From positions 113,263 through 177,262 of the forward strand of contig CAZNPH010000002.1 in the NCBI GenBank assembly GCA_964574985.1: a stretch of DNA of 64,000 nucleotides. Reading direction: 5' to 3'. Position numbers and translations under genes: made by a program. The DNA comes from an uncultured Bacteroidaceae bacterium (lineage in GTDB: Bacteria > Bacteroidota > Bacteroidia > Bacteroidales > SM23-62). This document shows, piece after piece, positions 1 through 64,000 of this stretch (position 1 is the stretch's first letter; each line of letters begins with the position of its first letter). The notes below the pieces were generated by a model. That model was given only the letters and a program-made list of their open reading frames with translations, did no database searches and was not told the origin of the DNA.

Positions 1-7
1 ACGAACT

Positions 8-3802: not shown

Positions 3803-3813
3803 GTTATTCTTTT

Positions 3814-8130: not shown

Positions 8131-8253
8131 AGATGATTTGCGATAATCCAATAAGTGTTACTAATTTCATGTCCGAGAGAATTAAGTTTCTCCACCCGGT
8201 TTGCCCATTTCAGGATTTTTTGCGTGGAGACGGCTCAAGTTTGCTAATACTTT

Positions 8254-9306: not shown

Positions 9307-9424
9307 AATTGCGGTTGTTACAATAAAGGTGAATAAAGTTAATCCGATAAAAAAGAATTTCAAACAAATACCGGCATTATCTGAAGGTATTTTATTTTCA
9401 TCCGGACACATAATGGGCATTATC

Positions 9425-10498: not shown

Positions 10499-10508
10499 GT
10501 GAACTGAT

Positions 10509-12443
10509 TTAAAATTTGATTTTGCATATGAACATATGGTTGCGTCCCGGCATGGCCCTCCAGAGAACCGCCTGGTAATCTTCATTGAACAAGTTCCTGA
10601 TGGTATACTCCAGGTGGAACCGGAACCCGGAAACCCTGAATTTTCTTCCCGCGCTGATGTTGTGCAGGTCATATGCAGGCAGACTGTGCCGGTTGGTTTC
10701 ACCGCCTTCGGCTGTAAATCTTTTCCCCGTCAGTGCAAAAGAATAGGAAAAATTATTGTTGCCCAGTGTGGAAATGAACCTGGCACCCGCTTTGTGCAGG
10801 GGGATATATATCAATTGGTTGTTTTTCTGGTTGGTCGTCCGGGTATAGGCATAATGGGCGTTCAGGCGCAGGTTCATATTCCGCATGAGGTAATTGCCCG
10901 TGAACATGCATTCCAATCCCCTGGAAAAAACCTTTTTGATATTGTCTGCCTGCCAGAACCTGAATTTGCCCGGGGCCCACATGATCCAGTCGTCAATCAG
11001 CGATGCATATGTGTTTGCCCTGGCGGTGAATGCAAATGTGCTGTCCCGGGCGAACCGGTATTCCAGGGAGAGGTCTGCCATGGTCCCTTTTTCCGGACGG
11101 AGGTTGGGATTCCCGCCGGGGCTCCAGTAAAGGTCGTTCAGCGAAGGAATGTTGTATACTGCGGATACGTTGGATCTGAGTTTCAGATCCTGCAGTCCGG
11201 GAACGGTCCATTCAAATCCTGCCGAAGGCATAAAAGGCGTGAATTCCCGGTCCGCGTACTCTTCCCGTAGGAGTCCGAATACCGTCAGTTCGCTGCTTGC
11301 CGCATGATGGAGGCTGACAGTGGCTCCAAGCTCATTGCGAACCACATCAAATCCGCCGGTTTTCAGGTGATCGGTGACGGTTCCCCTGTGGAAATAATAA
11401 TTCACCTGGCTTTTGAAGACCGTTTCCGGTGAGATCCGGATTTCCAGTTTGTGCCGGTTATACAAGCCTTCAAATTCATTTTGTGTATCAAAATTTTGAA
11501 GTATCCCCCCTTCTGTATGGTTGGCCAGGCGGTACCGGAGATCCTGATGGCTGAAACCCGTGATGAGTTCAGACCGGAACTTTTCCCCGTGCCTGATCCA
11601 TGAGGCGGTCAGATGCAGGTCCCGGTCCTTTTGGTTCTCATCCCTTTCGCTTCCCTGGTAAGACATGATGGGAGGGAGGTTGCGGTCGGATTCCTGGATC
11701 CAGGCATGGACGGATACGGTCCCGCCGGAGTAAGTCCGCATATACACCTCCCCCTGCGCACCGGTTTTGGCGTAATCCGCGTTTTTTTGCTTTTCATATC
11801 TCCACAGTCCGTTGGCATCATTGTAAAAAGTAAAATCATTTTCAGAGCGCTGATGGAAAACCCTGAAGTTCGTCTGCCACTTCGTATTTCCCCCGCCCAG
11901 GGTAAGAAATGACTGATAGGTGTCAAAGCTGCCGATACCCTGAATGGCCGATCCTGAGAATCCTTCGTACCAACCGGTACGGGTACGGAGATGGATGCTT
12001 CCGCCCAGGGCCCCGGGTCCTTCATGTAAAGTGCTTCCCCCATGGAACAGGTTGATCTCGTCGATCAGAAATACAGGGACCAGGGAAAGATCCGCCTGTC
12101 CGGTAAGCGGACTGTTCAGGGGGATGCCGTTCCAGACGATGCGGGTATGGGATGAAGCAGTGCCACGGAAAGAGACGGTCGACAGTGCCCCGGGTCCGTA
12201 ACTCCTGATAAATACAGGAGTGTTTTCAGATAGCAGTTCGCCAAGTGAGATATTGAATGCTTTTTGTATCGCGGATGAGTCCACCCGGGTTTTGACCAGT
12301 CCTTTTTCCGGGACAGGAATGGAGGCCTTGATCCGCACTTCGCGCAGCAGTATGACCGTATCGGCCAGATTCTGTGCCTGGAGGGACAGGCAAAAACCGG
12401 TCAGCCATAGGAAAACCACAATATGTATGCATTTTCCGGTCAT
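10509..12443 (-). CDS. TonB-dependent outer-membrane receptor (BtuB-like by context)
   Basis: 644 aa with a signal peptide. Plug region: VSFRGTASSHTRIVWNGIPLNSPLTGQADLSLVP. A long beta-barrel ends in an aromatic residue (...FICKIKF). It lies downstream of a cobalamin riboswitch. Confidence 0.8.
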   Translation of the reverse strand: MTGKCIHIVVFLWLTGFCLSLQAQNLADTVILLREVRIKASIPVPEKGLVKTRVDSSAIQKAFNISLGELLSENTPVFIRSYGPGALSTVSFRGTASSHTRIVWNGIPLNSPLTGQADLSLVPVFLIDEINLFHGGSTLHEGPGALGGSIHLRTRTGWYEGFSGSAIQGIGSFDTYQSFLTLGGGNTKWQTNFRVFHQRSENDFTFYNDANGLWRYEKQKNADYAKTGAQGEVYMRTYSGGTVSVHAWIQESDRNLPPIMSYQGSERDENQKDRDLHLTASWIRHGEKFRSELITGFSHQDLRYRLANHTEGGILQNFDTQNEFEGLYNRHKLEIRISPETVFKSQVNYYFHRGTVTDHLKTGGFDVVRNELGATVSLHHAASSELTVFGLLREEYADREFTPFMPSAGFEWTVPGLQDLKLRSNVSAVYNIPSLNDLYWSPGGNPNLRPEKGTMADLSLEYRFARDSTFAFTARANTYASLIDDWIMWAPGKFRFWQADNIKKVFSRGLECMFTGNYLMRNMNLRLNAHYAYTRTTNQKNNQLIYIPLHKAGARFISTLGNNNFSYSFALTGKRFTAEGGETNRHSLPAYDLHNISAGRKFRVSGFRFHLEYTIRNLFNEDYQAVLWRAMPGRNHMFICKIKF

Positions 12444-13519
12444 TCTGTAATCAAAAGTTTGCCTTTAAAAATCTTTTTTTCCTGCCGGAACATCAAAATG
12501 TATATACCCGGCACCAGGTTCCCGGGTATGTTCAGAGCGGCCGGGTGTATGTTTTCCTTCCGGGTCATTTGTGTGGTCTTCCCTTCAAGGTTTATCAGAG
12601 AAGCTCCCCGGATCATTTTCCGGGAGTTCAGGCATGGATGGCGGATTGAAATCCGGTCGCCTTTGGAGACCGGATTGGGGGATATTTCAAGGAATTCCCG
12701 GATGTTATGCCTGCAGGGGGAATACAGGTGCCCGGTGCCCGCAGTCTGTGCATAATGGATCACTCCGATTGCATTCAGGTCGAATCCGCCGTTCCAGTAT
12801 GGAGTGGGCCAGGGGTCGTTGATGATGGTTCCCCGGGAGTCAAAACTGCAAAAACTGCTGTCGATGCTTCCCACCACATCGATGACCCTGACCTGCCGGA
12901 TGTTGTGGATATCGATTCCTGAGCTGTCCCTCAAATCCTGCAGATCGAAAGGCGTACCATACCCGCGGGGATATTTGCCGGCCAGGTTGTGGAAATTTTC
13001 CGGGTCCATGGGCGTAAAGCTTCCGACCTGCAGGGTGTCCTGGTTATCTGATATGGACGGGAAGCGGACAAAATGAATACCGTCCGAACTGACTTCTACA
13101 AAAGCCAGCTCAAGATAATACAGGTTTTCGCTGCCTGCCGCATGAAAACCATTTTCGAATACGGCAAAATCAGGACCTTCACCGTCGGACAAGGGACGGT
13201 GGAATTCCAGGATGGCCTGTCCCCCGTCGCCCAGACTGACACAGTCCATGTTGCCTGACGGTTTGCCGGTGGCCAGACTATCATACCCGAAGAAAGCACG
13301 GTTGGAGGTGATCCCTCCCTCCGTGCAGGTAAGATTGGTGTCAGCGATGTTGAGATAACCCCTGCTTGTCCGGCAGCCGGCAGCCCATCCGGCAAATACG
13401 GAACTGTCCTTGTGGATAGGCCCGGTTCCGTTCTGCCCGGAGGAAAGAAACTTCTGTGCATATCCGCCGGTTGATGCAAGAAAACACAGACAAAGAAAAA
13501 TGAAGCAAGGTCTTTCCAT
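12440..13519 (-). CDS. Secreted/cell-surface protein with a T9SS C-terminal sorting domain; first gene of the B12-riboswitch operon
   Basis: 359 aa. Signal peptide: MERPCFIFLCLCFLASTGGYAQ. The last ~80 aa (ISPNPVSKGDRISI...PGIYILMFRQEKKIFKGKLLITE) fit the Por secretion tail pattern. Its stop overlaps the receptor ATG (ATGA). Confidence 0.65.
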   Translation of the reverse strand: MERPCFIFLCLCFLASTGGYAQKFLSSGQNGTGPIHKDSSVFAGWAAGCRTSRGYLNIADTNLTCTEGGITSNRAFFGYDSLATGKPSGNMDCVSLGDGGQAILEFHRPLSDGEGPDFAVFENGFHAAGSENLYYLELAFVEVSSDGIHFVRFPSISDNQDTLQVGSFTPMDPENFHNLAGKYPRGYGTPFDLQDLRDSSGIDIHNIRQVRVIDVVGSIDSSFCSFDSRGTIINDPWPTPYWNGGFDLNAIGVIHYAQTAGTGHLYSPCRHNIREFLEISPNPVSKGDRISIRHPCLNSRKMIRGASLINLEGKTTQMTRKENIHPAALNIPGNLVPGIYILMFRQEKKIFKGKLLITE

Positions 13520-13649
13520 CGTTTGCCGCCATTTTATGAAGCCTGATTTTGCAGCAAACGATGTCGGGGAGAGTTGAAATAGACATTGCTGATTTGCTTC
13601 CTGTTCACCGCAGGCTGCAAAACCGGCAATGCACTGGCAGGTCTTCTGA

Positions 13650-13812
13650 CTTGTCCCGGTTCCTGCCCCCTTCCCATCTTGTTTTGTTCAAAACAGTGGT
13701 ATATCCGGCAGAAACCATGTGGCCCCGATGGGCCCGGGTTCACAGCAGCGGGAACTGTTGCCGATTCTCACGGCATTCCTTATTAATCCCTGCAAACGGG
13801 AACCAATGCATC
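13650..13812 (-). promoter_or_regulatory. Cobalamin (B12) riboswitch
   Basis: The minus-strand RNA reads TGGTTCCCGTTTGCAGGGATTAATAAGGAATGCCGTGAGAATCGGCAACAGTTCCCGCTGCTGTGAAC...ATACCACTGTTTTGAACAAAACAAGATGGGAAGGGGGCAGGAACC. It shows the conserved core (AAGGAA / GTGAGAATC / CCCGCTGCTGTGA), the B12 box (CCACTG...GGGAAGG) and P1 closure GGTTCC/GGAACC. Confidence 0.8.
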
Positions 13813-13816
13813 ATGT

Positions 13817-13824
13817 CAAATGTA
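13817..13824 (-). promoter_or_regulatory. Bacteroidetes -7 promoter box (TACATTTG) for the riboswitch operon
   Basis: The reverse complement of caaatgta matches TAnnTTTG, about 5-10 nt upstream of the first riboswitch helix. Confidence 0.5.
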
Positions 13825-13884
13825 AGGCAATTTTGTGGAATTTTTTGTATTTTCACCATTGGATTTGAATTGATCCTCTTCAAA

Positions 13885-15576
13885 ATGATGAAAAAAAGCT
13901 TTTTACTGCCGGTGTTGCTGTTGATCGCCCTGCCTTCCTTCCCACAGGGGGAGGCAGTGAACAAGGTGTCCGTAGAAGTCATCCTGGAAAAAAAATACAT
14001 GAACTTTCCGGTTTGCAACCGGGAAAAAAGACAGATCGTGCGGATTTATGCAGGGGGCGAAACAATCAGGGAATTCACCATTCACCTGGCAGCCGGCAGT
14101 GTGGATTGGTGGGCGTACCTGGACATCAAACCTTTTTCCGGGAAAAGGGTTGTTGTTGCGGTGGAAGGATACCCGCAGAATTCAAGGGGCCTGGATATGA
14201 TCTTTCAGGACGATACCATGGCCAACGCGGAGGAACTGTACAGGGAAGAGCTGCGCCCCGTTTACCACTTTACGGCTGCCCGGGGATGGCATAATGATCC
14301 GAACGGACTGGTATTTCATGATGGGATTTATCACCTCTATTTTCAGCACAATCCCTACGGATGGAACTGGGGAAATATGCACTGGGGGCACGCGGTCAGC
14401 ACCGACCTGGTGCACTGGAAGCAACTGGATGAGGCCCTTTATCCCCCGGCTCTTCATGACATGCGTTTTTCGGGTTCGGCCGTGGTCGATCACCAAAATA
14501 CGAGCGGTTTTGGCCGGCCGGGGCGGCCGCCCCTGATCACGGCCCATACCAGCACCGGGCGGGGGGAAGTCATCGGTTACAGTCTGAACAACGGGAAGAC
14601 CTTCACCGGGTATGAAGGCAATCCCGTAGTTGTGCATGAGCATACGGGAAGGGATCCGAAAATATTCTGGTACGAGCCGGGCGGACACTGGGTTATGATC
14701 GTTTATGATGAAAAGCCCGATAAAAATCAACAGGGCATTCAAATCATCAAAAGGACTTTTGACATACATACTTCGCCGGACCTGAAACATTGGACCTGCC
14801 GTTCCGCCATACCTGGTTTTTTTGAATGCCCCGAACTTTTTGAATTGCCGGTGGACGGGAATGAGAAGGATACCCGGTGGATCGTGTATGACGGGATGGG
14901 CGACTATCTGGTCGGAAAATTCGATGGCATGGTTTATGCTCCGGAATCCGGCAAGCATGATTTTCATAAAGGCCATTTTTATGCATCACAGACATACAAT
15001 AACATGCCTGGCAACAGGCGCGTACAGGTCGCATGGGGAAAGGGCATGGAATTCCCCGGAATGCCATTCAACCAGATGATGCTGTTTCCCACCGAACTGA
15101 GTCTGCATACCACCCAGGACGGAATCCGGATGTTTGCACAACCGGTCCGGGAGATCGAAAAACTCCACGGAAGATCGTACCACCGTGAGGATATCACATT
15201 GACCGATACCAATTCCCTGGTTATATATCCTGAAACCTGCGCCCTGCATATCTTGTCCACCATCAGGCTTGATGATCCGGCAAGTTGTGGGATGGAGGTA
15301 AATGGTTACCGGGTCCATTTCGACCGCAGAAGATGGGAGCTGAACGGACATTTTGTCCGGCCGGTGAACAACAGGATCCATCTGGAAATCCTGGTGGACC
15401 GTGCAAGTATTGAGATATTTGCCAATCACGGACGGTTGTACATTCCGGACTACCATTTTTCAACGGGTAAAAATCCCTGTGTAAAGATCTATGCCGGAAA
15501 AGGCGGAGGCGGAACAGGGATCGCGACAGTCGAAAACCTGGAAATCTATGAAATGAGGTCTATCTGGCTTGATTAA
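13885..15576 (+). CDS. Glycoside hydrolase family 32 (beta-fructofuranosidase/levanase-like), secreted
   Basis: ATG 13885 gives the signal peptide MMKKSFLLPVLLLIALPSFPQ. GH32 motifs present: WHNDPNGLVFHDGIYHLYFQHNP, RDP (GRDPKIFW) and EC (FFECPELF). The upstream 112 codons of the ORF track overlap the riboswitch and were rejected. Confidence 0.9.
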   Translation: MMKKSFLLPVLLLIALPSFPQGEAVNKVSVEVILEKKYMNFPVCNREKRQIVRIYAGGETIREFTIHLAAGSVDWWAYLDIKPFSGKRVVVAVEGYPQNSRGLDMIFQDDTMANAEELYREELRPVYHFTAARGWHNDPNGLVFHDGIYHLYFQHNPYGWNWGNMHWGHAVSTDLVHWKQLDEALYPPALHDMRFSGSAVVDHQNTSGFGRPGRPPLITAHTSTGRGEVIGYSLNNGKTFTGYEGNPVVVHEHTGRDPKIFWYEPGGHWVMIVYDEKPDKNQQGIQIIKRTFDIHTSPDLKHWTCRSAIPGFFECPELFELPVDGNEKDTRWIVYDGMGDYLVGKFDGMVYAPESGKHDFHKGHFYASQTYNNMPGNRRVQVAWGKGMEFPGMPFNQMMLFPTELSLHTTQDGIRMFAQPVREIEKLHGRSYHREDITLTDTNSLVIYPETCALHILSTIRLDDPASCGMEVNGYRVHFDRRRWELNGHFVRPVNNRIHLEILVDRASIEIFANHGRLYIPDYHFSTGKNPCVKIYAGKGGGGTGIATVENLEIYEMRSIWLD

Positions 15577-15623
15577 CAAAATCTTACACATAAAACATAT
15601 TTGGATAAAACCTCCCATTGGTT

Positions 15624-15631
15624 TATATTTG
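15624..15631 (+). promoter_or_regulatory. Candidate -7 box (TATATTTG)
   Basis: Matches TAnnTTTG, 36 nt upstream of the ATG at 15667. Confidence 0.4.
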
Positions 15632-15666
15632 AATGAATTATATCATGCCTTTATATTTTTCTTTCC

Positions 15667-17058
15667 ATGAAAATCAGGGATAAGCTCATTGTATGTGCAA
15701 TCATCATCGGCCTTTCATATTACGTTCTTGATGCATTCATTGATTACCTTCTTTTTTACGAAGATCTTTCCTTTTTTCAGATCCTGGTGCTGAAAGTTCC
15801 CATTGCCGAGCTATACAACCGGCTGATCGGCATTACTGCCATATTAATTTTCGGGATCATCATTTCGGGTTTTATGGCCGATCTGCAAACCGACCGGCAC
15901 CTGACCATCAGAAAACCGGAGAACGTGAAGGACGAAATGATCTTCGATCCCAATCTTATGGTCAAACTGGCCCATCAGATCAGGATACCGATGAATGCCA
16001 TTGTCGGCTTTTCTGACCTGCTGAAGGATCCTTCACTTTCCGTACAGTCCAGGCAAACCTATATCAATCATATCAATTCCAGCGGGAAGTACCTGCTCAG
16101 CCTCATTACCAATATGGTTGACATAACCCGGCTGGAGATGGGCCAGTTGCCGGTGAACAAAAAAAATTTCAGTCTGAATGAACTAATGCAGGAGATCCAT
16201 AATGATTTTGAAAAGCGGAAGAAAGAAAGTGGGCGGACTGAAGTCGGGATCGTCCTCAGAAAAGGCATCAGGGAAGGGGATTTCACCTTCCATACGGATC
16301 CGGACCGGCTCCGGCAGGTCATATCCAATTTGCTGGAAAATGCGCTTAAATTCACCGAGGAAGGCTTCATCGAATTCGGGTACAAAAAGCCGGATGGAAA
16401 TGAACTCGAGTTTTATGTGAAGGATACGGGTTCGGGTTTTTCCGGAGAAAGGCTTGAAGTCATATTCAAACGTTTCAGAAACATGTCCGACAACCAGATC
16501 CATCCTTTCGACAGTGCTGCCCTGCGGCTGAACATCGCCAAAAACCTTGTCTGCCTTCTCGGTGGAGGAATGTGGGCGGAATCCAGGATCGGACAAGGGT
16601 CCACGTTCCGTTTTACCATATCCGGTAAAAGCTATGAAGAGATCATTGAGAAAGAAAAAATTGAGAAAAAAGAAACCGGACAAAAAAACTGGAAGAACAA
16701 AACAATCCTGATCGCGGAAGACATTGAATCCAACTTCATTTACCTTCATGAGATACTGAAACCCACAGAAGCCCGATTGATCTGGGCAAAAAACGGAAGG
16801 GAAGCGGTTACGCACTGCCAGAAAAATGACCGGATCGATATTGTGCTTATGGATATTCTGATGCCGGAAATGGATGGATATGAAGCATTGGAAAAGATCA
16901 AGGGGATCAATGAAGACCTTCCTGTTGTTGCACAAACCGCATATTCCCTGGAAGGAGAAACAGACAGAACACAAACGGAACGTTTCGATGATTATCTGAC
17001 CAAACCCATCTGGTCAAACCATCTATTGTCAACCCTGGGGAAATATCTCAATCAATAG
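15667..17058 (+). CDS. Hybrid sensor histidine kinase/response regulator (2 TM, no obvious sensor domain)
   Basis: H-box LAHQIRIPMNAIVGFSDLL; N-box LLENALKFT; G-boxes DTGSGFS and GQGSTF. A receiver domain follows (ILIAEDIESN...DIVLMDILMPEMDG...LTKP). Confidence 0.85.
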   Translation: MKIRDKLIVCAIIIGLSYYVLDAFIDYLLFYEDLSFFQILVLKVPIAELYNRLIGITAILIFGIIISGFMADLQTDRHLTIRKPENVKDEMIFDPNLMVKLAHQIRIPMNAIVGFSDLLKDPSLSVQSRQTYINHINSSGKYLLSLITNMVDITRLEMGQLPVNKKNFSLNELMQEIHNDFEKRKKESGRTEVGIVLRKGIREGDFTFHTDPDRLRQVISNLLENALKFTEEGFIEFGYKKPDGNELEFYVKDTGSGFSGERLEVIFKRFRNMSDNQIHPFDSAALRLNIAKNLVCLLGGGMWAESRIGQGSTFRFTISGKSYEEIIEKEKIEKKETGQKNWKNKTILIAEDIESNFIYLHEILKPTEARLIWAKNGREAVTHCQKNDRIDIVLMDILMPEMDGYEALEKIKGINEDLPVVAQTAYSLEGETDRTQTERFDDYLTKPIWSNHLLSTLGKYLNQ

Positions 17059-55266: not shown

Positions 55267-55773
55267 TTGAGAATATTCCTGATCGGTTTTATGGGTTCGG
55301 GAAAAACCACCCATGGAAAAGCCCTTGCCGGTATGATGGGTTATGATTTCATTGACATGGATGAACGGATCAGCCGGGATCGGCAGAAATCCGTCGAAAA
55401 AATATTCCGTGAGGGCGGAGAGGATGTTTTCCGGAGGTATGAACGTGATCTGCTGGCCAGACTGGTCAAAATGGATAATATCGTGGTATCCACCGGAGGC
55501 GGGGTCCCCTGCCGGGAGGATAATATGGAGCTGATCAACCGGCACGGATTGTCGGTATACCTGAAGCTGGAAGTCCGCCACATCGTCAGCCGTTTGCTGC
55601 ATTCTTCGGGCAGGCCTTTGATTTCCGGAAAAAACAAACAGGAATTGACCATTTATGTGAGGAATGTATTAAAAAAACGTTCGGAATATTATGAAAAGGC
55701 CCGGCTGATCATCGATGCACGGGATCTGGAAACCGCCGGCCTTTGCCGGGAAATTCAGGAAGCTGCACTATAG
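55267..55773 (+). CDS. aroK: Shikimate kinase
   Basis: Apparent TTG start. Contains IFLIGFMGSGKTT (P-loop) and VVSTGGG. Confidence 0.85.
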   Translation: MRIFLIGFMGSGKTTHGKALAGMMGYDFIDMDERISRDRQKSVEKIFREGGEDVFRRYERDLLARLVKMDNIVVSTGGGVPCREDNMELINRHGLSVYLKLEVRHIVSRLLHSSGRPLISGKNKQELTIYVRNVLKKRSEYYEKARLIIDARDLETAGLCREIQEAAL

Positions 55774-56571
55774 GTTGAAATCATGGTCACCCCGTTTTTC
55801 GGACCGGGTAAATTCACTGTCCGGATCCAGATGAAGATATTTCACCAGGGCCCTGGTACCGATATAAAAGGGAATGGTGTCAAGCAATGCAGAAACCATT
55901 TTGAATACATAATTGGAAAGGATCAAAACCAGAAGTGCATGAAACACCGTTTCTCCGGGTTGGATCTGAATGGCATTGGTGGCGTAGAAATAGGTGATGG
56001 TGACCACGGACAGGGAATCGACCATCTGGCTGGTCAGTGTGGAACCGTTGTTTCTCAGCCACAGCATTTTCCCCCGGGTCAGTTTTCTGATCAGATGGAA
56101 AATCTGCACGTCAACAAATTGTGCGGTCAGGTAGGCGATCATGGATGCTATGGTTGCCCCGAAGGTCCATTTCCGGATCTGAAAGAAAGTCCGGCTTGGA
56201 TCTTCCAGTGCAGGCAAACCGTTGTCCACAAGCTCAGGATGGGGGGGGAGGGCTCCGCCCACCCACATGATGAACAATACCCATATATTCAACAGCAACC
56301 CCACCCACACAACGGTACTGGCCCTCTTTTTGCCATACAGTTCGCTGATAAAATCGGTGCACAGGAAGGTAATGGGATAGGGAAGAACCCCGACAAAAAC
56401 CACAAAAGGGACCTCCATGCTGTTTATCCTGAATGAAAGGTCTATTTGCCTCGAGATCCCCAGAATATTAAGAATGGCAAGTGTTCCGAGAAACATTCCG
56501 GACAGTATGATGAAAACAATCTCCCTGCGGCGGCTTATCTTTTTATCAACTTTGTCACCGAAGTCAAACAT
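55768..56571 (-). CDS. yhhQ: Queuosine-precursor transporter (YhhQ/VUT, DUF165 family)
   Basis: 267 aa, polytopic. Contains LPYPITFLCTDFISELYGKKRA, typical of YhhQ. Confidence 0.75.
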   Translation of the reverse strand: MFDFGDKVDKKISRRREIVFIILSGMFLGTLAILNILGISRQIDLSFRINSMEVPFVVFVGVLPYPITFLCTDFISELYGKKRASTVVWVGLLLNIWVLFIMWVGGALPPHPELVDNGLPALEDPSRTFFQIRKWTFGATIASMIAYLTAQFVDVQIFHLIRKLTRGKMLWLRNNGSTLTSQMVDSLSVVTITYFYATNAIQIQPGETVFHALLVLILSNYVFKMVSALLDTIPFYIGTRALVKYLHLDPDSEFTRSEKRGDHDFNL

Positions 56572-56791
56572 GAGATCCTGAATGTACCTCTTTAATTACG
56601 GGATTATGACGAAACCGGCGTTTAATTTATGAAATAAAATTGAAAACCTAACAATTTATTGATAAAGCCATCGCACCCTATGGTTATTTTGACTAAATTT
56701 ATGACCGGTTTTTCAAGAAGATCAATATGCCCTGGCGCTATACGCAACAGGGCAGCAAAAGCGGGGATGTTATGTTTCTTATATCAGCAGT

Positions 56792-59700
56792 ATGCCTCGT
56801 GGAATATACAAAGCATTGAATATTGAACAGGAAGAAAAGACCACTGTCCTGTTGCTCATCGTTCAATCGGTTTTCCTGGGAACTTTTTACGGCGCTTTTG
56901 ACATCGGTGCCCATGCCTTGTTCCTGGACCGCTTCCCTGCCCAAATGATCCCCAAGGCTTTCGTGGTATCCGGTTTTGCAGGCATCCTGATGACCTCTGT
57001 ATATTCCTGGTTCCAGGCCCGGATGAAATTTGCCCTTTTTACCCTGGCCAACCTGTTTTTTATTGCTGCCGTCAGTTTTTTACTGTGGATGGGTTTTTTC
57101 TTTACCGGCGGTGACCGGCATGTATTCATAATATTCGTGATGATGGGTCCCCTGAATATTATTGCCTTGCTCGGATTCTGGGGTACCGTCAGCCGGATGT
57201 TCACCCTCCGGCAGGGGAAACGCTTGTTCGGACTGATCGATACCGGACAGATATTCGGGATCATTCTCGCCAGCTATGCCATACCTTTTCTGCTTTCTTT
57301 ACAGATCGGCACACGTGATTTGCTACTGATCAGTGCTATAAGTATATTGGCTGCCCTGGTTTTCCAGTGGATACTTACCCGGAAATTCGAATTGGAGAAA
57401 GGTTCAAAACAAGAAGAAGAATCCGGAGAAAAAACCGGTTTGTTTTCCCTGCTGAAAAATCCCTATGTGCTTAACATGTCGGTCTTTGTCGGTTTGTCGG
57501 TTATGGCTGCCTTTTTTATTCATTATTCTTTTCTGGCAGTCACCAAAGAGAATTATCCCGAGAATGTCGATCTGGCTGCCTTTCTGGGATATTTTAATGG
57601 CACCCTGATGGTATTCAGCATTTTGATTAAAACTTTTGTGTTCAGTAAATTGCTTAAGACATACGGCCTGAAGCTGGCCCTTGTGCTGTCACCGATTCTG
57701 CTTTTCATGTTCACCGTTTTTGCAGTGCTGGTAGGGCAACTTGGAGGATATACCGCCGCTGCGGCCAGCTTTACGTTTTTCTTCCTGCTGATCTCGGTCA
57801 GCAAATTATTTTCAAAAGCACTGCATGATTCGATTGAAGCCCCGTCTTTCAAAATACTGTACCAGTCCCTGAACATCAACATCCGGTATCATGTGCAGGC
57901 CAGGGTAGACGGGACCATTAACGAAATATCCGCCCTCTTTTCCGGACTGATGCTGACCGGACTGGGAGCCATTGTTTTTATAAATCTCCTGCATTTCTCG
58001 TATTTCCTGCTGATCATATTGCTGGCGTGGAGCATTGCGGCCTTTGGTCTGTACAGAAGCTACAAGAGATCCCTGAACGAATCGCTTGCCAGGTATAAGA
58101 AATCCGGGGAATTGGTTGAAGAAAGCCGGAAGCGGGAGGAACCGCATGCAGCCGATCAAAAAGGATCTCCCCGGGAGCTGATCAACACGGTGACCCTGTA
58201 TGAGATCGCTTTTCCGGAGAAGCTCAGGGACTATATCCGTGATGTTTTGAAAAAGGCCTCCGGCCGGATGGGGAAATTCCTGCTGAACAAAATCGGTGAA
58301 CATGAGCTGTTCACAATGAAAGAAGCATTGGATCAATGGGTTGATGATAATCCTGATGAAGAGATCAAAACCCTTGCAGGCGACTTGTCTTCGCGGTTTG
58401 ATGAAGTTCTTTCGGCAAATTATTCCTTTGAGCAGCTTGAAGATGGAATGAAATCGCAGGATCCGGAAAAAAGAAAACTGACGGCCGTATATATCGGGTT
58501 TCATCCATCTGCTGAATACACTCCGCTCGTGAATATATTGCTCAGGGATCATGACATCACGGTCAGAAGGTCTGCGATCGGGGCCGCGGGTGCTGTTAAA
58601 TCCGGGGAACACGGTCCTGTACTGGTTGAACTTCTCTCCGGGCCGCTGTACCGTGAGGCCTCCGGGGCGCTCGTCCGCATGGGAGCCGCTTCGTTGGAAG
58701 GGCTGTCCCAGGCATTTTACCGGACAGGGGTTGAAGAGAAAACACTGGTCAGGATCATGAGAATCCTTCCCGGGATCGAAGATCCCGGCGCCCGTGCACT
58801 GTTGATGACACATATTGATCATTACAGTGCAGATGTTTCCCGGCAGGCGGTTGCATCGTTGCGGGAGATGAATTATCAGGCAGAGGCCGGGGAGGTTCCC
58901 AAAATGATCGAGCGGATCAAATCACACATAGGTGTCATTGCCTGGGATTTTTCAGCTTCGTATTCGCTGGAACAAAATGCTGGTTTCGATCACCTGCACA
59001 AGGCCTTCCGGGATGAACTTGCTGCTGATTTTGACCTTTTGTACCAAATGCTGTCCATTGCCTACGATCCCAGGAGCATCCATCATATCAGGAAAAACAT
59101 TGAAACCGGAACCAGTGAAAGCATCGGATTTGCCATCGAGCTGCTGGACCTGTTTATCGCAGAAGACCTCAAAACAGTACTGTTCGCCGTGCTTGAGGAT
59201 GCGACACTTCCCGAGAAGATCAGGCAGCTTCAGCAGTATTATCCGGTGAATCCCGTTGATATCCGGGAATTGTTGCTTTCCCTCATCAACCGGAACCCGA
59301 ATCTGGTGAGTTCCTTCACCCGGGCATGTGCAGTCTATTATCTTAATATGCTTGAAGATTACCAGGCAAACGATGATCTGGTTGCCCAGCTGTTCAATCC
59401 CGATCCGATGCTCAGGCAGGTTGCCGGGATCAGGTTGAAGGAGATGGATCCGGAAAAATATGCATCGGCACTGCGAAGATTGCCGGAAGAATGGCAGCAT
59501 GAAATGAGGGCATGGGCAGAAGACAAAGCGGATACAAATGGAGAGCTGATCCTGGAGAAGGTTTTTTATTTGCTCAAAAATGCTTACTTTTCTGATTTGC
59601 ACGGGGAGGTTCTTGCCCGGATGGCGCGGGAATTATATACAATTGAAATGAAGCCCCGTGACGAATTGAAATTGAGCCCGGATTCTTCTGCAGGCAGGTT

Positions 59701-59983
59701 ATGCTTTTTCGTCACCGGGGAGGTCAATGTTTTTCTGGGTGAACAGTTGCTTGAAAAACCCGGGAAAGGGGATATGATCGGTTTCCTGCCACTGCAGTAC
59801 ACGGGTGAGCAAAGTGTAACCTTGCGGGCCCTGAAAAAAAGCATATTGTATTATCTGGACAGCAGGATCCTCGATGAACTGATGTACGACCATCCGGATC
59901 TGGCAAGGGCAATATATGACTGGATGAATGAGTCCGGGCAGGAAAAATCAGAAAAAGGCAGGAGGCACGCAAAAGCGGTTTAA
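56792..59983 (+). CDS. Fusion protein: N-terminal ~12-TM MFS/nucleotide-transporter-like domain, central HEAT repeats, C-terminal cyclic-nucleotide-binding (CAP-type) domain
   Basis: 1063 aa. The first ~420 aa are polytopic. HEAT-like repeats are present (LLRDHDITVRRSAIGAAGAV...LVELLSGPLYREASGALVRMG). The C-terminal cNMP-like beta-roll reads LEKVFYLLKNAYFSDL...GRLCFFVTGEVNVF...GDMIGF...TLRALKKS. Confidence 0.65.
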   Translation: MPRGIYKALNIEQEEKTTVLLLIVQSVFLGTFYGAFDIGAHALFLDRFPAQMIPKAFVVSGFAGILMTSVYSWFQARMKFALFTLANLFFIAAVSFLLWMGFFFTGGDRHVFIIFVMMGPLNIIALLGFWGTVSRMFTLRQGKRLFGLIDTGQIFGIILASYAIPFLLSLQIGTRDLLLISAISILAALVFQWILTRKFELEKGSKQEEESGEKTGLFSLLKNPYVLNMSVFVGLSVMAAFFIHYSFLAVTKENYPENVDLAAFLGYFNGTLMVFSILIKTFVFSKLLKTYGLKLALVLSPILLFMFTVFAVLVGQLGGYTAAAASFTFFFLLISVSKLFSKALHDSIEAPSFKILYQSLNINIRYHVQARVDGTINEISALFSGLMLTGLGAIVFINLLHFSYFLLIILLAWSIAAFGLYRSYKRSLNESLARYKKSGELVEESRKREEPHAADQKGSPRELINTVTLYEIAFPEKLRDYIRDVLKKASGRMGKFLLNKIGEHELFTMKEALDQWVDDNPDEEIKTLAGDLSSRFDEVLSANYSFEQLEDGMKSQDPEKRKLTAVYIGFHPSAEYTPLVNILLRDHDITVRRSAIGAAGAVKSGEHGPVLVELLSGPLYREASGALVRMGAASLEGLSQAFYRTGVEEKTLVRIMRILPGIEDPGARALLMTHIDHYSADVSRQAVASLREMNYQAEAGEVPKMIERIKSHIGVIAWDFSASYSLEQNAGFDHLHKAFRDELAADFDLLYQMLSIAYDPRSIHHIRKNIETGTSESIGFAIELLDLFIAEDLKTVLFAVLEDATLPEKIRQLQQYYPVNPVDIRELLLSLINRNPNLVSSFTRACAVYYLNMLEDYQANDDLVAQLFNPDPMLRQVAGIRLKEMDPEKYASALRRLPEEWQHEMRAWAEDKADTNGELILEKVFYLLKNAYFSDLHGEVLARMARELYTIEMKPRDELKLSPDSSAGRLCFFVTGEVNVFLGEQLLEKPGKGDMIGFLPLQYTGEQSVTLRALKKSILYYLDSRILDELMYDHPDLARAIYDWMNESGQEKSEKGRRHAKAV

Positions 59984-59988
59984 ACGAT

Positions 59989-62037
59989 ATGGACCAAAGA
60001 TACACAACCATTTTCAGGCAGTTGATCTACAACATTGTCGGTCCGGCAATCATAGCCCTTCTGATATTGGGTGTGCTGAACTATAACCACACCAAAAATA
60101 TCCTGATCGAATCCAGTGAAAACAAGAAGGAAATCATCATTGACGAAATAACCCACATCCATGAATTGCAGGATATGGCCCTTGAGATCCTTGAACGGGA
60201 ACTCAATGAAGAGATGCGGGTGATCAGCGACAAGCTTGTTACCGAATATTTTGCGGATACCCGGAATATTGAAAATGTAGATCTTTATGAAATCAGGAAA
60301 GAATTGGGGATGAATCCCGAATTTGAGGACATCTATATCATCAACCGGGAAGGCACTGTGGTAAATACCACATTTTCCAAGGATAAGGGTTTGAATTTAT
60401 TCGCTTTTGGTGAAGAGCACAAAAAGCTGCTGATGGATGTTTTTGAACAAAACCGTTATGTCAGTGAGCGGTTTGCCATGGAAAGCCAGACCAAAAGACT
60501 CAAAAAGTTCACCTATCAACCCACCCTGGACGGCGCTTATATTGTGGAACTGGGCGTATATTCCCCCAAAGCCGATGAAACCATCCAATACATAAAAAGT
60601 ACACTGAATGAGATCTCCCGGCAACAGGAAAACATCGTATCGGTGCATCTTTTCATCGGATCCGACAATCCTTTTTCGCTGAATGAGGATGTGCAGATCA
60701 AGGAAGAACATATGGACCTGTACCGGAAAACCCTGAATGAAAAAACCAATATCAGGACCAGCGAAAAGGAGGAAAAAACCCGGCTCAATTACAACTATAT
60801 TTACATGCAGCGAAAGCATACCGATCTGTATAAGGGGTCGGTGATCCGGATCATTTCCGACCGTTCCGCAGAACGAAAACTGCTTCGTTACGAGACCTTC
60901 AAGTTCCTGATCATATTCGGGGTGACCATACTGGTGGTTATCGTGTTGTTATACAGAAAAACCCGGGTAATTACCGATCCCATCAAGAAGCTGGTGGAAA
61001 ATGTGAACAGGATCACCAACGGGCATTTGGAAGAAAGGGCCGATGTGATCGGAAACAATGAGATCACCAAACTTTCCGAACAGTTCAACCAGATGATTGC
61101 CCAGCTGGAAAGCTATTACAATGAACTGGAACAGAAAGTCAAGGAACGAACTGCAGAAATTGAGAGGCAGAAAGAAGAGATTGAGGCCCAGCGTGATTCA
61201 CTGGCCGAGCAGCGGAATATACTGAGGCAGACCAATTCGGATTTGCAGAAAGCGTATGGAGAGATCGAAGAAAAAAACAAGCATATTGAGGACAGCATCC
61301 ATTATGCAAAAAGAATTCAGAATGCCATCCTCCCCCCCGACCATTATGTTAGTGACCTTCTGGGGGACGGTTTTATTTTTTACCGGCCAAAAGACATTGT
61401 CAGCGGGGATTTTTACTGGCTGAACAAAAAGAAGGACCTGGTCATGATAGCTGCAGTGGATTGTACCGGGCACGGGGTTCCCGGTGCATTCATGTCCATT
61501 GTGGGAAACAACCAGTTGAATTACGCCGTCAATGTGCTGGGTACAAGAAAACCTGCGGAGATACTGAACGCCCTGAACGAGGGAGTTACCAGAACACTCA
61601 GGCAGACCCGGGGAGGCAGGGGGGTTAAGGACGGAATGGATATGGCCCTCTGCGTCATCGACTACGGTGAGATGAAACTGGAATTTGCCGGGGCCTATAA
61701 TCCAATGTTTCATATCCGGGATCATGAACTGAATGTGATCAAGGGCGACAAGCATCCGGTGGGTGGCTTCCTGGATGAGGAATTGCCTGAATTTACCAAT
61801 AAAAAGCTGTCGCTCAAAAAGGGCGACATGATCTATATTTTTTCAGATGGCTATGCCGACCAGTTCGGCGGATCCAAAAACAAGAAATTCATGACCAGGC
61901 GTTTCCGGGAACTCCTGCTTGAGATTTGCCAAAAACCGATGCAGGATCAGAGAGACATACTGGAAGAGAGTCTGGACAACTGGATGAACGGACAGGTTCA
62001 GGTGGATGACATACTGGTCATAGGGGTAAAGGTTTAG
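59989..62037 (+). CDS. Membrane sensor PP2C/SpoIIE-family phosphatase (extracytoplasmic Cache-like domain, HAMP, coiled coil, PP2C)
   Basis: 682 aa. Two TM segments flank a ~270-aa loop. HAMP: ITDPIKKLVENVNRITNGHL...ITKLSEQFNQMIAQLE. PP2C motifs: SGDFYW, DCTGHGVPGAFMS, DGMDMAL, FSDGYADQFGG. Confidence 0.85.
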   Translation: MDQRYTTIFRQLIYNIVGPAIIALLILGVLNYNHTKNILIESSENKKEIIIDEITHIHELQDMALEILERELNEEMRVISDKLVTEYFADTRNIENVDLYEIRKELGMNPEFEDIYIINREGTVVNTTFSKDKGLNLFAFGEEHKKLLMDVFEQNRYVSERFAMESQTKRLKKFTYQPTLDGAYIVELGVYSPKADETIQYIKSTLNEISRQQENIVSVHLFIGSDNPFSLNEDVQIKEEHMDLYRKTLNEKTNIRTSEKEEKTRLNYNYIYMQRKHTDLYKGSVIRIISDRSAERKLLRYETFKFLIIFGVTILVVIVLLYRKTRVITDPIKKLVENVNRITNGHLEERADVIGNNEITKLSEQFNQMIAQLESYYNELEQKVKERTAEIERQKEEIEAQRDSLAEQRNILRQTNSDLQKAYGEIEEKNKHIEDSIHYAKRIQNAILPPDHYVSDLLGDGFIFYRPKDIVSGDFYWLNKKKDLVMIAAVDCTGHGVPGAFMSIVGNNQLNYAVNVLGTRKPAEILNALNEGVTRTLRQTRGGRGVKDGMDMALCVIDYGEMKLEFAGAYNPMFHIRDHELNVIKGDKHPVGGFLDEELPEFTNKKLSLKKGDMIYIFSDGYADQFGGSKNKKFMTRRFRELLLEICQKPMQDQRDILEESLDNWMNGQVQVDDILVIGVKV

Positions 62038-62038
62038 T

Positions 62039-63421
62039 ATGGTTACAAAGGCCAAAATAGGTATCATTCTTCCCGGGCCCGGGGATCAGTTGCCTGCCGG
62101 AATAATGGAATGGGTGGATACTTTCAGGAAGCATTTTGATGTGATGCTGAAAAGACTGACCGGAAGGGAAACAAAATGGATGGAACCGGAGTCGGGATAT
62201 CAGTTTCGTCCGGAATGTGAGACCTGCATATTGATAATGCATGCGGGTCATCCGGAAAAGATGCCCGGTGATATACCGGAAAAGACCCTGCAGAAAGCAG
62301 TCAGACTGATGTTGTCGAGGTTCCGGTCCGGCGGTATCCCCGACGAACTGGTCAGGATTGAGAATTTTGATTTTTTCACCAAAGGTTCCGGAGAAGGGGA
62401 CCAGGGTTTGCTTTCACCCCGGCAAAAAGAATACTGGCTTAAGCTGGCCGACCTGGTCATTGATATTTCAGACCGGTTTGACACCCGAAAAACGGGCATG
62501 AAGCCGGATGGAAAAGAAACCATATATCTGGCCGCCGGATGCTACGGACAGGAATCTGAAAGGGATGTTCTCCGCCGGGAATTTTCACAATGGGGATACC
62601 GGGTGGTCCCTGAGTATGACTTATCATGCCTTGATGCCGGAAAGCTTGTAAACCATATCAGGGAACAATGTGCAAATTCCATTCTTTCCGTTCACATCAT
62701 CGGGGATGAATTCGGGACATCTTCCGGGGCCGGGAAGGAACCGGTTGATGATATGCAGATCAGGATCTGTGAAGAAGTTTTTTCCCGGCAAAGAGGGCAA
62801 CCGGGTTCCGGTGAATGGCCTTACAGTTTTATCTGGCTGCCTGCCGGTTTTGTACCCCGGGACGAACAACAAAATGAAACAATTCAGCGCCTGAAAAGAT
62901 CTGTTGCAAGTCAGCCCAATACCGAGATCATCCAGACTCCCCTGGAAGCATTCAAGGAAATTATACGGAAAAAATTGCTTGAAAGGTCTGTAGATAAAAA
63001 AACTGAAAAATCCCGCCAAAAAGCCCGGAAATCGGTTTATATGATTTGTGACCGGAACGATTTGCAAAAGATCGAACCCATAAAAAAGACCATTCTTGAG
63101 CATGGTTTTGAACCATTAACCATTGATTACGGATCGGGAAAGTATAATCTCATTCATGAACACAAACAGCATCTTGTTGAATGTGACGGGGTGATCGTTT
63201 ATTATGGCAACCGAAATGAAAAATGGTTGATGAGCAAGCTCAAGGATCTTTTGAAATCACCGGGATTCGGACGACAAAAACCCATTCCCGGGAAGGCGGT
63301 ATTCAAGGACCCCGGTTCAAAAGTTCCGGATATTCAGGGATTGGGGGACCTGCTGGTCATTGATCACAACGGGGAACCGGACAAATCGTTGCTGCAACCT
63401 TTTTTTGATAAGCTGACATGA
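62039..63421 (+). CDS. Hypothetical protein built of two to three TIR/DUF4062-like alpha/beta modules
   Basis: 460 aa. Repeated strand-helix starts resemble TIR-like or DUF4062 modules: KIGIILPGPGD..., ETIYLAAGCYGQESERDVLRREFSQWGYRVV...ILSVHIIGDEFG, and SVYMICDRNDLQKIEPIKKTILEHGFEP...CDGVIVYYG. This is a pattern-level call only. Confidence 0.45.
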   Translation: MVTKAKIGIILPGPGDQLPAGIMEWVDTFRKHFDVMLKRLTGRETKWMEPESGYQFRPECETCILIMHAGHPEKMPGDIPEKTLQKAVRLMLSRFRSGGIPDELVRIENFDFFTKGSGEGDQGLLSPRQKEYWLKLADLVIDISDRFDTRKTGMKPDGKETIYLAAGCYGQESERDVLRREFSQWGYRVVPEYDLSCLDAGKLVNHIREQCANSILSVHIIGDEFGTSSGAGKEPVDDMQIRICEEVFSRQRGQPGSGEWPYSFIWLPAGFVPRDEQQNETIQRLKRSVASQPNTEIIQTPLEAFKEIIRKKLLERSVDKKTEKSRQKARKSVYMICDRNDLQKIEPIKKTILEHGFEPLTIDYGSGKYNLIHEHKQHLVECDGVIVYYGNRNEKWLMSKLKDLLKSPGFGRQKPIPGKAVFKDPGSKVPDIQGLGDLLVIDHNGEPDKSLLQPFFDKLT

Positions 63422-64000
63422 GCGATCAAACTTTGAACAAAAAAACCATGCCGAAACCCGGTACCGCCCGGAATTATGCAAATCCTTTTCCCGGACTCCG
63501 GCCTTTTGGTATCGATGAAAATCACTTGTTTTTCGGACGCGAGGGACAAAGTGAGGAAGTATTGATGCATCTGGCAAGGAACCGGTTCGTTGCCGTGATC
63601 GGGGCATCGGGAAGCGGAAAATCCTCCCTGATGTATTGCGGGCTTGTCCCTACTTTATACGGGGGATTTATTGCAGATGCGGGATCCTCCTGGAAAATCA
63701 TCACCACCCGCCCGGGCAACGATCCACTGGGCAATCTTGCCAGGTCCATTGCCCTGGAAGAAACCACCGGCCTCCGGGATGAAAATCCGGAAGTTGCCGT
63801 AAACATTACCGAAGCGGTCATAAGAAGGAATTCAAAGGGACTGGTCAATGCCCTGGAGCACATCGGATTGTCTGAGGGAGAAAATATTTTGCTGCTTGTT
63901 GACCAGTTCGAGGAACTTTTCCGGTATAAAGGCAGCAGGAAGGATGAGAATGCCTTCAATGACTCGGAGGTTTTTGTCAGGTTGCTGGTACAGGCCGTAA
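63418..64000 (+). CDS. STAND-class P-loop NTPase (5' part only; ORF runs off the window and is absent from the ORF track)
   Basis: My own translation from ATG 63418 is open to the window end: MSDQTLNKK...NPFPGLRPFGIDENHLFFGREGQSEEVL...AVIGASGSGKSSLMYCGLVP (Walker A)...ILLLVDQFEELF (Walker B). The ATG overlaps the stop of the upstream gene (ATGA). Confidence 0.75.
   Translation, partial: MSDQTLNKKTMPKPGTARNYANPFPGLRPFGIDENHLFFGREGQSEEVLMHLARNRFVAVIGASGSGKSSLMYCGLVPTLYGGFIADAGSSWKIITTRPGNDPLGNLARSIALEETTGLRDENPEVAVNITEAVIRRNSKGLVNALEHIGLSEGENILLLVDQFEELFRYKGSRKDENAFNDSEVFVRLLVQAV

Follow-up and report, generated by a model that had tools for sequence, protein, structure and literature searches.

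A conserved Bacteroidota gene cluster that pairs a predicted membrane-spanning STAND NTPase with TIR-like modules: a possible trans-envelope signalling switch

Four closely packed genes at the end of a 64,000-nucleotide stretch of an uncultured Bacteroidaceae bacterium (contig CAZNPH010000002.1, positions 113,263 to 177,262; this whole stretch is referred to as the window) encode, in order, a transporter fusion (g1), a sensor phosphatase (g2), a protein with TIR-like modules (g3) and a STAND NTPase (g4), and the question they raise is whether such parts make up an NLR-like immune system or serve another function. To our knowledge, bacterial STAND/NLR-like and TIR/DUF4062 proteins are understood almost wholly as cytoplasmic phage sensors and NAD+-degrading effectors. 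The clade described here differs, in that its STAND NTPase is predicted to span the membrane and to carry an extracytoplasmic sensor, and its three-module TIR-like partner has the catalytic glutamate replaced. We favour, though with somewhat less than even confidence, the reading that the cluster is a trans-envelope STAND signalling switch which uses TIR-like proteins as scaffolds. If confirmed, the cluster would show immune-type modules used for, or derived from, envelope signalling, would give a first functional context to fusions of NTT-type transporters with HEAT repeats, and would be a bacterial example of TIR domains working as scaffolds and not as enzymes.

The original prediction, made from the sequence of the window, described an operon-like cluster of four genes. 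Reading the junctions confirmed four co-directional open reading frames (ORFs) with gaps of 5 nt (g1–g2) and 1 nt (g2–g3) and a 4-nt ATGA overlap (g3–g4); the operon-like arrangement and the co-conservation of the genes stood, but the number did not, as six genes are conserved and the window, whose end is passed by the g4 ORF, shows only the first four. An exact-protein look-up with the product of ORF3 (g3) led to four microbial-mat metagenome contigs, one of which (L001) equals the window over 11,161 nt, extends 6.1 kb past its end, completes g4 (1044 aa) and adds g5 and g6 downstream. The gene after g6 (g7, 402+ aa) was considered as a further member and excluded, since it is kept in none of the compared loci.

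Relatives of g3 were sought with sequence patterns in a single genome of each GTDB species, and the patterns came from a 7-sequence g3 alignment (a 27-sequence alignment held no sufficiently conserved stretch). The scan gave 46 loci, all in metagenome-assembled genomes (MAGs) of Bacteroidota, namely Bacteroidales including Rikenellaceae, Marinilabiliales, Salinivirgaceae, Cytophagales and Vicingaceae, with Flavobacteriales among the orders. According to tblastn, the order g1-g2-g3-g4-g5-g6 on one strand is present in essentially every sufficiently long locus, with median intergenic gaps of 25, 8, 1, 5.5 and -1 nt, and typical identities to the window are ~57% for g2, ~50% for g4, ~40% for g1, ~36% for g5, ~31% for g6 and ~28% for g3. 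That the genes merely lie next to each other by chance, or share a promoter with no joint function, we regard as hardly credible: the same order, strand and near-zero spacing recur in 46 genomes of several orders, in pairwise comparison the identities of g1, g2, g5 and g6 rise and fall with those of g4, and the g3–g4, g1–g4 and g4–outer-membrane-protein adjacencies recur independently in other phyla or arrangements.

The surroundings of the cluster are conserved as well. Its upstream neighbours are parE, parC, aroK and vut; vut adjoins g1 in 30 of 40 loci, parC-aroK-vut are adjacent in about ten, and the identities of ParC and g4 co-vary (Spearman 0.95, n=8). Taken together, the conserved order, the parE-parC-aroK-vut flank and the co-variation with ParC indicate, as far as comparative sequence data go, that the six-gene cluster is inherited vertically within Bacteroidota core synteny and is not carried by a variable or defence island. 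Neither the 72,556 plasmids nor the 50,697 phage genomes searched by tblastn with g3 gave a match, and PADLOC, run on the cluster proteins, found no defence family. The individual PADLOC matches (PycTIR/'Effector TIR' to the cyclic-nucleotide-binding-domain (cNBD) region of g1, ZorA and JetC to the coiled coil of g2, HEAT-ARM_XIII to WD40) were set aside as noise from low-complexity stretches or shared domains.

What sets the cluster apart is in the first place the anatomy of g4. The nSTAND1 family (PF20703, cut-off 27.1 bits) matches the fragment in the window with E=3e-36 (126 bits) and the full-length protein with E=3e-96 (324 bits), and the prediction of a STAND NTPase with a sensor hidden beyond the window edge proved right, given that the extension past position 64000 reveals a WD40 domain. 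The PFPGLRPF...FFGRE pattern is present, only 22 residues precede the NTPase, and the key residues of Walker A (GASGSGKSS) and Walker B (LLLVDQFEE) are invariant in 40/40 orthologues. In the full protein on contig L001 the NTPase is followed by a transmembrane helix (aa 507-525), a coiled coil of ~160 aa, in the region of which Tandem Repeats Finder detected no DNA repeat, and a C-terminal WD40 propeller (aa ~700-1000). Exactly one strongly hydrophobic segment, near residue 500, is present in each of the 39 full-length orthologues, with 6-7 Lys/Arg in the 15 residues before the helix and 2-5 after it, and the helix is also found in the g4 relatives of Acidobacteria-type, Runella, Persicobacter, Caballeronia and Hymenobacter loci. 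Because of this positive-inside bias around a single helix, the NTPase appears to be cytoplasmic, with the coiled coil and WD40 predicted to be periplasmic, and the 160 helical residues of the stalk, at ~24 nm, would roughly match the width of the periplasm. The juxtamembrane segment, i.e. the 65 residues before the helix, is the best conserved part of g4 (81%) and WD40 the least conserved (36%); in the Acidobacteria-type relatives, TPR repeats stand in place of WD40.

The nSTAND1-clade NTPases of predicted prokaryotic conflict systems (Kaur, Burroughs, Iyer & Aravind, eLife 2020, 2021) share with g4 the family itself, the PFPGLxxF...FFGRE pattern, the Walker motifs, the C-terminal WD40 or TPR repeats and a neighbouring TIR-type protein. 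Unlike them, g4 has no N-terminal effector or effector-associated domain, its conserved transmembrane helix puts the repeat sensor outside the cytoplasm, and it belongs to a six-gene cluster (with transporter, phosphatase, outer-membrane barrel and lipoprotein) in core synteny. g4 does not conform to the Avs/NLR-like type of anti-phage protein, as it has no N-terminal effector, carries a transmembrane helix between NTPase and WD40, and gave only P-loop and WD40 noise in PADLOC; the make-up of the cluster suits signalling across the envelope better than the sensing of phage in the cytoplasm. As a side observation, many nSTAND1 relatives are annotated as 'High-affinity carbon uptake protein Hat/HatR' or 'energy-coupling factor transporter ATP-binding protein EcfA2', which look like propagated misannotations, and Cyclobacteriaceae apparently have many nSTAND1 paralogues.

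The two genes downstream of g4 point towards the outer membrane. g5 (351 aa, overlapping g4 by 4 nt) has a signal peptide and an OMP_b-brl_2 beta-barrel, i.e. it is a small PorT-like barrel with an N-terminal helical domain, and g6 (415 aa) combines an invariant lipobox Cys with a weak resemblance to the beta-propeller lipoproteins of the SBBP type. In Runella rosea a TonB-dependent receptor gene lies directly after the g4 homologue, and the N-terminal extension by which this receptor's plug domain is preceded shows homology (E=3e-9) to the domain at the N-terminus of g5; a search with the shared domain also detects the start of g5 in seven other loci. Since one periplasmic domain is thus carried by two types of barrel, each encoded right after a g4-type gene, these comparisons argue for g4 being the partner of an outer-membrane protein. 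A works-like analogy, and only that, is offered by TonB-dependent transducers and FecR signalling, in which a barrel with an N-terminal periplasmic extension is encoded beside a single-pass inner-membrane protein whose periplasmic domain could receive, and whose cytoplasmic domain could transmit, the signal. In the TonB/FecR systems, however, the partner is an anti-sigma factor, where here it is a STAND NTPase and the cluster holds no ECF sigma factor; moreover, a true TonB-dependent receptor is present only in the Runella variant, g5 being PorT-like.

The second distinctive component is g3. Its AlphaFold2 (AF2) model, with a predicted local distance difference test score (pLDDT) of 81, consists of three alpha/beta modules, M1 to M3 (Table 1), which in the model itself extend over aa 1-150, 161-328 and 332-460, and the proposal that this 460-aa protein is TIR-like was upheld by its family and by its fold. 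The window protein itself matches DUF4062 (PF13271) with E=0.003 and 18.2 bits, under the cut-off of 24.7, and has no TIR match in Pfam; among 27 family members, PF13271 matches 25 (best E=2.5e-8; P0150 and P0152 match the full-length model) and TIR_2 matches 18. The family profile matches plant and animal TIR crystal structures with E=2.5e-5, through M1, and Foldseek finds the TIR domains of SARM1, MyD88 and TIR-STING with probability 1.0 and TM-scores of 0.55-0.67. Matches of the whole protein to GluA2 and GlmS were discarded as spurious multi-domain matches, only the single-domain ones (TIR, BcmB, SARM1) being usable, and similarity between the modules is weak by hhalign (M2–M3 E=7.8e-4, M1–M3 E=0.018, M1–M2 none).

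In particular, window g3 lacks, by its sequence, the usual catalytic glutamate in all three modules. M1, which is a canonical TIR domain in g3 relatives and shows only 16% identity across orthologues, has lost the SxWCxxEL segment with the catalytic Glu in window g3 and its nearest relatives; relatives of the Acidobacteria type and from Caballeronia keep the Glu, as do some from Cytophagales. In M2, Gln240 appears to occupy the position of the Glu in the 'E-Y' motif of DUF4062: the Pfam model ends exactly at ...S-x-x-x-L-Q-Y-E-x-A in g3 relatives, and the position is Gln in 44/44 Bacteroidota orthologues and in all 27 family members (S-x-x-E/D-x-Q). An M2-profile search of PDB sequences gave nothing significant, and one of 1.84 billion representatives gave, among the best 150, only close family members and no canonical DUF4062 enzyme. 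M3, modelled alone with an AF2 pLDDT of 89, resembles the TIR domains of TIR-STING, SARM1 and MyD88 as well as the NDT-fold proteins DNPH1 and BcmB (Foldseek TM-scores ~0.6), and has invariant Trp396 and Lys400 where TIR has W...E. With the catalytic Glu missing in M1, M2 and M3, the idea that the TIR-like modules of g3 act as an NADase effector is weakened.

The change in M2 deserves comparison with characterized proteins. In 2026 preprints, DUF4062 is described as a TIR-like NADase whose 'E-Y' Glu is essential, E-to-Q abolishing both activity and defence, and DUF4062 domains are reported as NADase effectors in Avs2, Swarozyc, Vulcan, Vesta and Evangelion; the replacement seen in M2 of g3 is the same one that is used experimentally to kill DUF4062 enzymes. 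Avs2-DUF4062 (NIR) and the DUF4062 defence systems Swarozyc, Vulcan, Vesta and Evangelion, which consist of one or two genes, share with our cluster a DUF4062-type domain coupled to a STAND protein with a repeat sensor; here, by contrast, the DUF4062-like domain is on a separate polypeptide and flanked by two more TIR-fold modules, the 'E-Y' Glu is an invariant Gln, PADLOC gives no match and the sensor is predicted to be periplasmic. The same three-part logic of DUF4062/TIR-like domain, STAND and WD40 is found in the eukaryotic proteins TEP1, NWD1, NWD2 and NPHP3. In the cluster, this logic is split over two genes, with nSTAND1 instead of NACHT and a predicted membrane span, and TEP1 is an active NADase with the catalytic Glu where g3 has Gln.

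Outside the 46 loci it is g3 and g4 that stay together. The g3 family is large, the M2 profile retrieving 2,634 representative clusters at E<=1e-3. Six distant members were sampled, of which three are Acidobacteria-like, one is a fusion with a Ser/Thr kinase and two measure 649 aa and 792 aa; in 6/6 an nSTAND1 gene directly follows the g3-like gene, with an overlap or a gap of <= ~10 nt; g1, g2, g5 and g6 are in none of these six loci. The pair is also present in cultured Caballeronia sp. SBC2 and Hymenobacter tibetensis. Judged from these neighbourhoods, the invariant core of the cluster is the g3+g4 pair, which occurs also outside Bacteroidota. In the literature searches and the parts of papers that were read, we found no description of the six-gene cluster or of a pair of transmembrane nSTAND1 and triple-TIR-like genes, which agrees with the original statement that no described system has this gene combination. 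Some g3 relatives, P0257 (L056 2958-6089), P0010 and P0253, carry an N-terminal Ser/Thr kinase or a C-terminal WD40 fusion, and the kinase fusion is notable beside the PP2C of the window cluster.

Considering these components together, we suggest that a cue from the outer membrane or periplasm would be received by the g5 barrel with its N-terminal helical domain, by the g6 lipoprotein and by the periplasmic WD40 domain of g4, the latter being held near the outer membrane by the coiled-coil stalk. The signal would then cross the transmembrane helix and conserved juxtamembrane segment of g4 and lead to nucleotide-dependent oligomerisation of the cytoplasmic STAND domain, and the STAND oligomer would organize g3, whose TIR-like modules, because the catalytic Glu is missing from all three, may serve as assembly or ligand-binding scaffolds and not as NAD+ hydrolases. 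The HAMP-PP2C protein g2 and the NTT-HEAT transporter g1 would be co-regulated input and output arms in the same membrane. The topology, protein contacts, direction of signalling and output of this switch are as we infer them.

Several points weigh against such a switch. The topology of g4 is read from hydropathy and the positive-inside rule only, and the register that places Gln240 at the 'E-Y' Glu comes from the end of the Pfam model together with the preprint motif, not from alignment to a validated enzyme or from superposition. As an output module, neither a DNA-binding domain nor an enzyme or a sigma factor could be recognized among the genes of the cluster. TIR, STAND and a repeat sensor together are the hallmark of immune systems, some orthologues (L006, L020, L043 and L044) retain the 'CxxEL' Glu of the M1 TIR, and the Caballeronia pair (L062, pSBC2-4, 6098-16570) lies on a mobilizable plasmid beside DUF4231 and an IS3 transposase, a setting which resembles that of conflict systems more than the Bacteroidota one does and suggests a conflict-type ancestry.

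The last of these points lend themselves to the idea with which the locus was first interpreted, namely an NLR-like immune or conflict system in which the STAND-WD40 protein would sense a cue derived from an invader, oligomerize and activate the TIR-like protein as an effector that consumes NAD+ or produces a signal, so that growth is arrested; another form of this idea has the sensor watch the periplasm or envelope for adsorbing phages, the injection of DNA or contact-dependent attack. The STAND and TIR-like parts of that interpretation held, and the description of the nSTAND1 family in conflict systems and of DUF4062 as an NADase effector, the TIR Glu kept in some lineages, the low conservation of WD40 within g4 and the many nSTAND1 paralogues in Cytophagales would all suit it. 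The predicted periplasmic sensor, the outer-membrane and lipoprotein genes and the core synteny do not: the capsid, portal and terminase of phages are not present as triggers in the periplasm, the housekeeping synteny is conserved and the cluster co-diverges with ParC, g3 has no phage or plasmid matches in the searches given above, PADLOC finds nothing, and window g3 has no catalytic Glu, its invariant Gln240 corresponding to the change that abolishes NADase activity and defence in the characterized DUF4062 proteins. We therefore consider the immune reading as a whole, with its envelope variant, unlikely. Nevertheless, an immune or conflict origin, or a present immune role such as envelope surveillance, may apply, given the lineages that keep the TIR Glu, the plasmid context of the Caballeronia pair and the general association of nSTAND1 with conflict systems. 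A bolder reading is that of a trans-envelope NLR, in which periplasmic WD40, outer-membrane barrel and lipoprotein would detect an event outside the cytoplasm, such as a phage adsorbing or injecting, a contact-dependent attack or damage to the envelope, and NTP-driven oligomerisation would relay the signal inward and assemble catalytically silent TIR-like scaffolds; this is conceivable if on the doubtful side. If true, it would be a bacterial counterpart of the way in which receptors signal through TIR adaptors of the MyD88 type, domesticated in Bacteroidota as a core function.

For the trans-envelope switch, which remains our preferred reading, the membrane arms encoded by g1 and g2 have to be accounted for. 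g1 has the make-up of the NTT-HEAT(-cNBD) family, a transporter domain followed by HEAT repeats: a scan for transmembrane segments gives ~11 helices, the Pfam match to MFS_1 is weak and below the cut-off, and orthologues carry PF03219 (TLC) plus HEAT_2 and are annotated as members of the ATP:ADP antiporter family. Conservation among orthologues falls from 52% in the NTT part through 35% in HEAT to 17% in the cNBD. The last, a degenerate cNMP-like beta-roll, scores 24.2 bits against the cNMP_binding gathering cut-off of 27.5 in Pfam, and its phosphate-binding cassette, which is not conserved, reads ...GEQSVT..., with Gln at the Arg position. Given the sub-threshold score, the missing phosphate-binding Arg and the 17% identity, we rejected this region as a true cyclic-nucleotide-binding domain, and with it the proposed nucleotide second messenger loses its ground. 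Major, Embley & Williams (GBE 2017; PMC5381601) reported the NTT-HEAT-cNBD architecture and stated its function to be unknown. This architecture is exactly that of g1, with the difference that the cNBD of g1 itself is degenerate, and the searched passages of that paper mention no conserved operon partnership with PP2C, TIR-like and STAND genes.

A further possibility raised by g1 is a nucleotide-handling module, in which the ligand or substrate of g3 would be a nucleotide (NAD+, ADP-ribose or a nucleoside monophosphate), handled through the non-canonical residues Glu/Asp238 and Gln240, or Trp396, Lys400 and Asp403, g1 would transport it, and STAND and PP2C would act as gates. Some members of the ATP:ADP antiporter (NTT) family, to which g1 belongs, transport NAD+, the fold of M3 matches the nucleotide N-glycosidases DNPH1/Rcl and BcmB, polar residues at the would-be active site are strictly invariant, and a preQ0-type transporter gene, vut, is often adjacent. 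Moreover, the adjacency of g1 and g4 is kept without g2 and g3 in Persicobacter, and it is kept in Runella. The g3–g4 pair, however, occurs without an NTT gene in Acidobacteria-like MAGs, Caballeronia and Hymenobacter, and E-to-Q at the TIR/DUF4062 site was inactivating in every tested case; we find a module of this kind decidedly unlikely.

g2 is a sensor phosphatase with two transmembrane helices, a periplasmic domain, HAMP and PP2C. The motifs originally quoted for PP2C (SGDFYW, DCTGHGVPG and SDGYAD) were all found in ORF2, as were the Walker and PFxGLxxF...FFGRE motifs in ORF4, and the metal-binding residues D474, D491, D548/D551, D620/D624 and D673/D674 are invariant in 39/39 orthologues. 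The 'Cache' domain assigned to g2 was not recovered: its periplasmic domain matches none of the Cache families of Pfam at E<=0.1, nor any sequence in the PDB. The C-terminal half aligns to SiaA (NCBIfam, E=3.7e-77, 260 bits), but g2 was rejected as a SiaA equivalog, since 260 bits compare with a cut-off of 700 and only that half is aligned. g2 thus resembles SiaA/RsbU/SpoIIE-type sensor phosphatases in its two transmembrane helices, periplasmic domain, HAMP and PP2C with all Asp motifs; it differs from their pathways in that the cluster has no SiaB/SiaC, STAS or RsbW partner, STAS/RsbW-like genes occurring only in the Runella variant. In two Bacteroidales loci (L039 and L048) the cluster is present without g2, and g1 is far more divergent (23-24% identity); the absence of g2 there implies that the phosphatase is dispensable in some lineages.

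STAS proteins and RsbW-like kinases are the usual partners of PP2C sensor phosphatases. On a Runella rosea plasmid (L061 5534-18307), two STAS/anti-sigma-antagonist genes and an RsbW-like kinase gene precede the g4 homologue, and this hints at a partner-switching link for the PP2C; after the g4 homologue come the TonB-dependent receptor gene, a GNAT gene and a g1-like NTT-HEAT gene. In Persicobacter psychrovividus pPP2 (L060 5831-12030), a g1-like HEAT-bearing membrane gene stands directly before a g4-like transmembrane nSTAND1-WD40 gene, without g2 or g3, and the pair lies inside a contractile-injection-system (phage-tail-like) gene cluster.

Table 1. Positions of the genes and sequence features of the cluster within the 64,000-nt window (TM, transmembrane)
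Feature	Position (nt)	Strand	Extent	Description
vut	55768..56571	-		Vut_1/YhhQ-type transporter; Pfam Vut_1 E=2.3e-46
vut-g1 intergenic region	56572..56791		220 bp	Presumed promoter region of the cluster; genes divergent
g1	56792..59983	+	1063 aa	NTT(TLC/MFS-like)-HEAT-cNBD fusion
g1 transporter part			aa 1-430	~11 TM helices (TM scan)
g1 HEAT repeats	58412-59491		aa ~541-900	Pfam HEAT_2 E=3.6e-13
g1 cNMP-like beta-roll	59579-59941		aa ~930-1050	Degenerate
g2	59989..62037	+	682 aa	Two-TM HAMP-PP2C sensor phosphatase
g2 TM1			aa 8-26	TM scan
g2 periplasmic domain	60091-60888		aa 35-300, 265 residues	
g2 TM2			aa 303-321	TM scan
g2 HAMP	60964-61110			Pfam E=8.6e-11; coiled coil next
g2 PP2C/SpoIIE	61309-62034			Pfam SpoIIE E=1.7e-19
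g3	62039..63421	+	460 aa	Predicted cytoplasmic, three TIR-fold modules
g3 M1	62039-62488		aa 1-150	Degenerate TIR
g3 M2	62510-63028		aa 158-330	DUF4062-like
g3 Gln240 (M2)	62756-62758			At the presumed position of the DUF4062 'E-Y' Glu; invariant
g3 M3	63029-63418		aa 331-460	TIR/NDT-like
g3 Lys400 (M3)	63236-63238			Invariant
g4	63418..64000	+	N-terminal 194 of 1044 aa in window	nSTAND1 P-loop NTPase
g4 Walker A	63601-63627			GASGSGKSS
g4 Walker B	63889-63915			LLLVDQFEE

Finally, some minor features of the region may be added. In two of the loci, L034 (1313-2050) and L046 (3987-4757), vut is on the strand of g1 and 16-31 nt upstream of it, and this gene for a queuosine-precursor-type transporter may be a seventh associated gene. 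A scan of the cluster for sigma-70 promoters and terminators gave background level, with a consensus that does not cover Bacteroidota promoters, and a search for RNA sequencing runs that include the locus found none. The start of g1 differs between gene callers, the ATG at 56792 giving 1063 aa and the TTG at 56816 giving 1055 aa. At the other end of the window, positions 1-4000 have a G+C content of 0.40-0.42, lower than the ~0.46-0.51 of the remainder.

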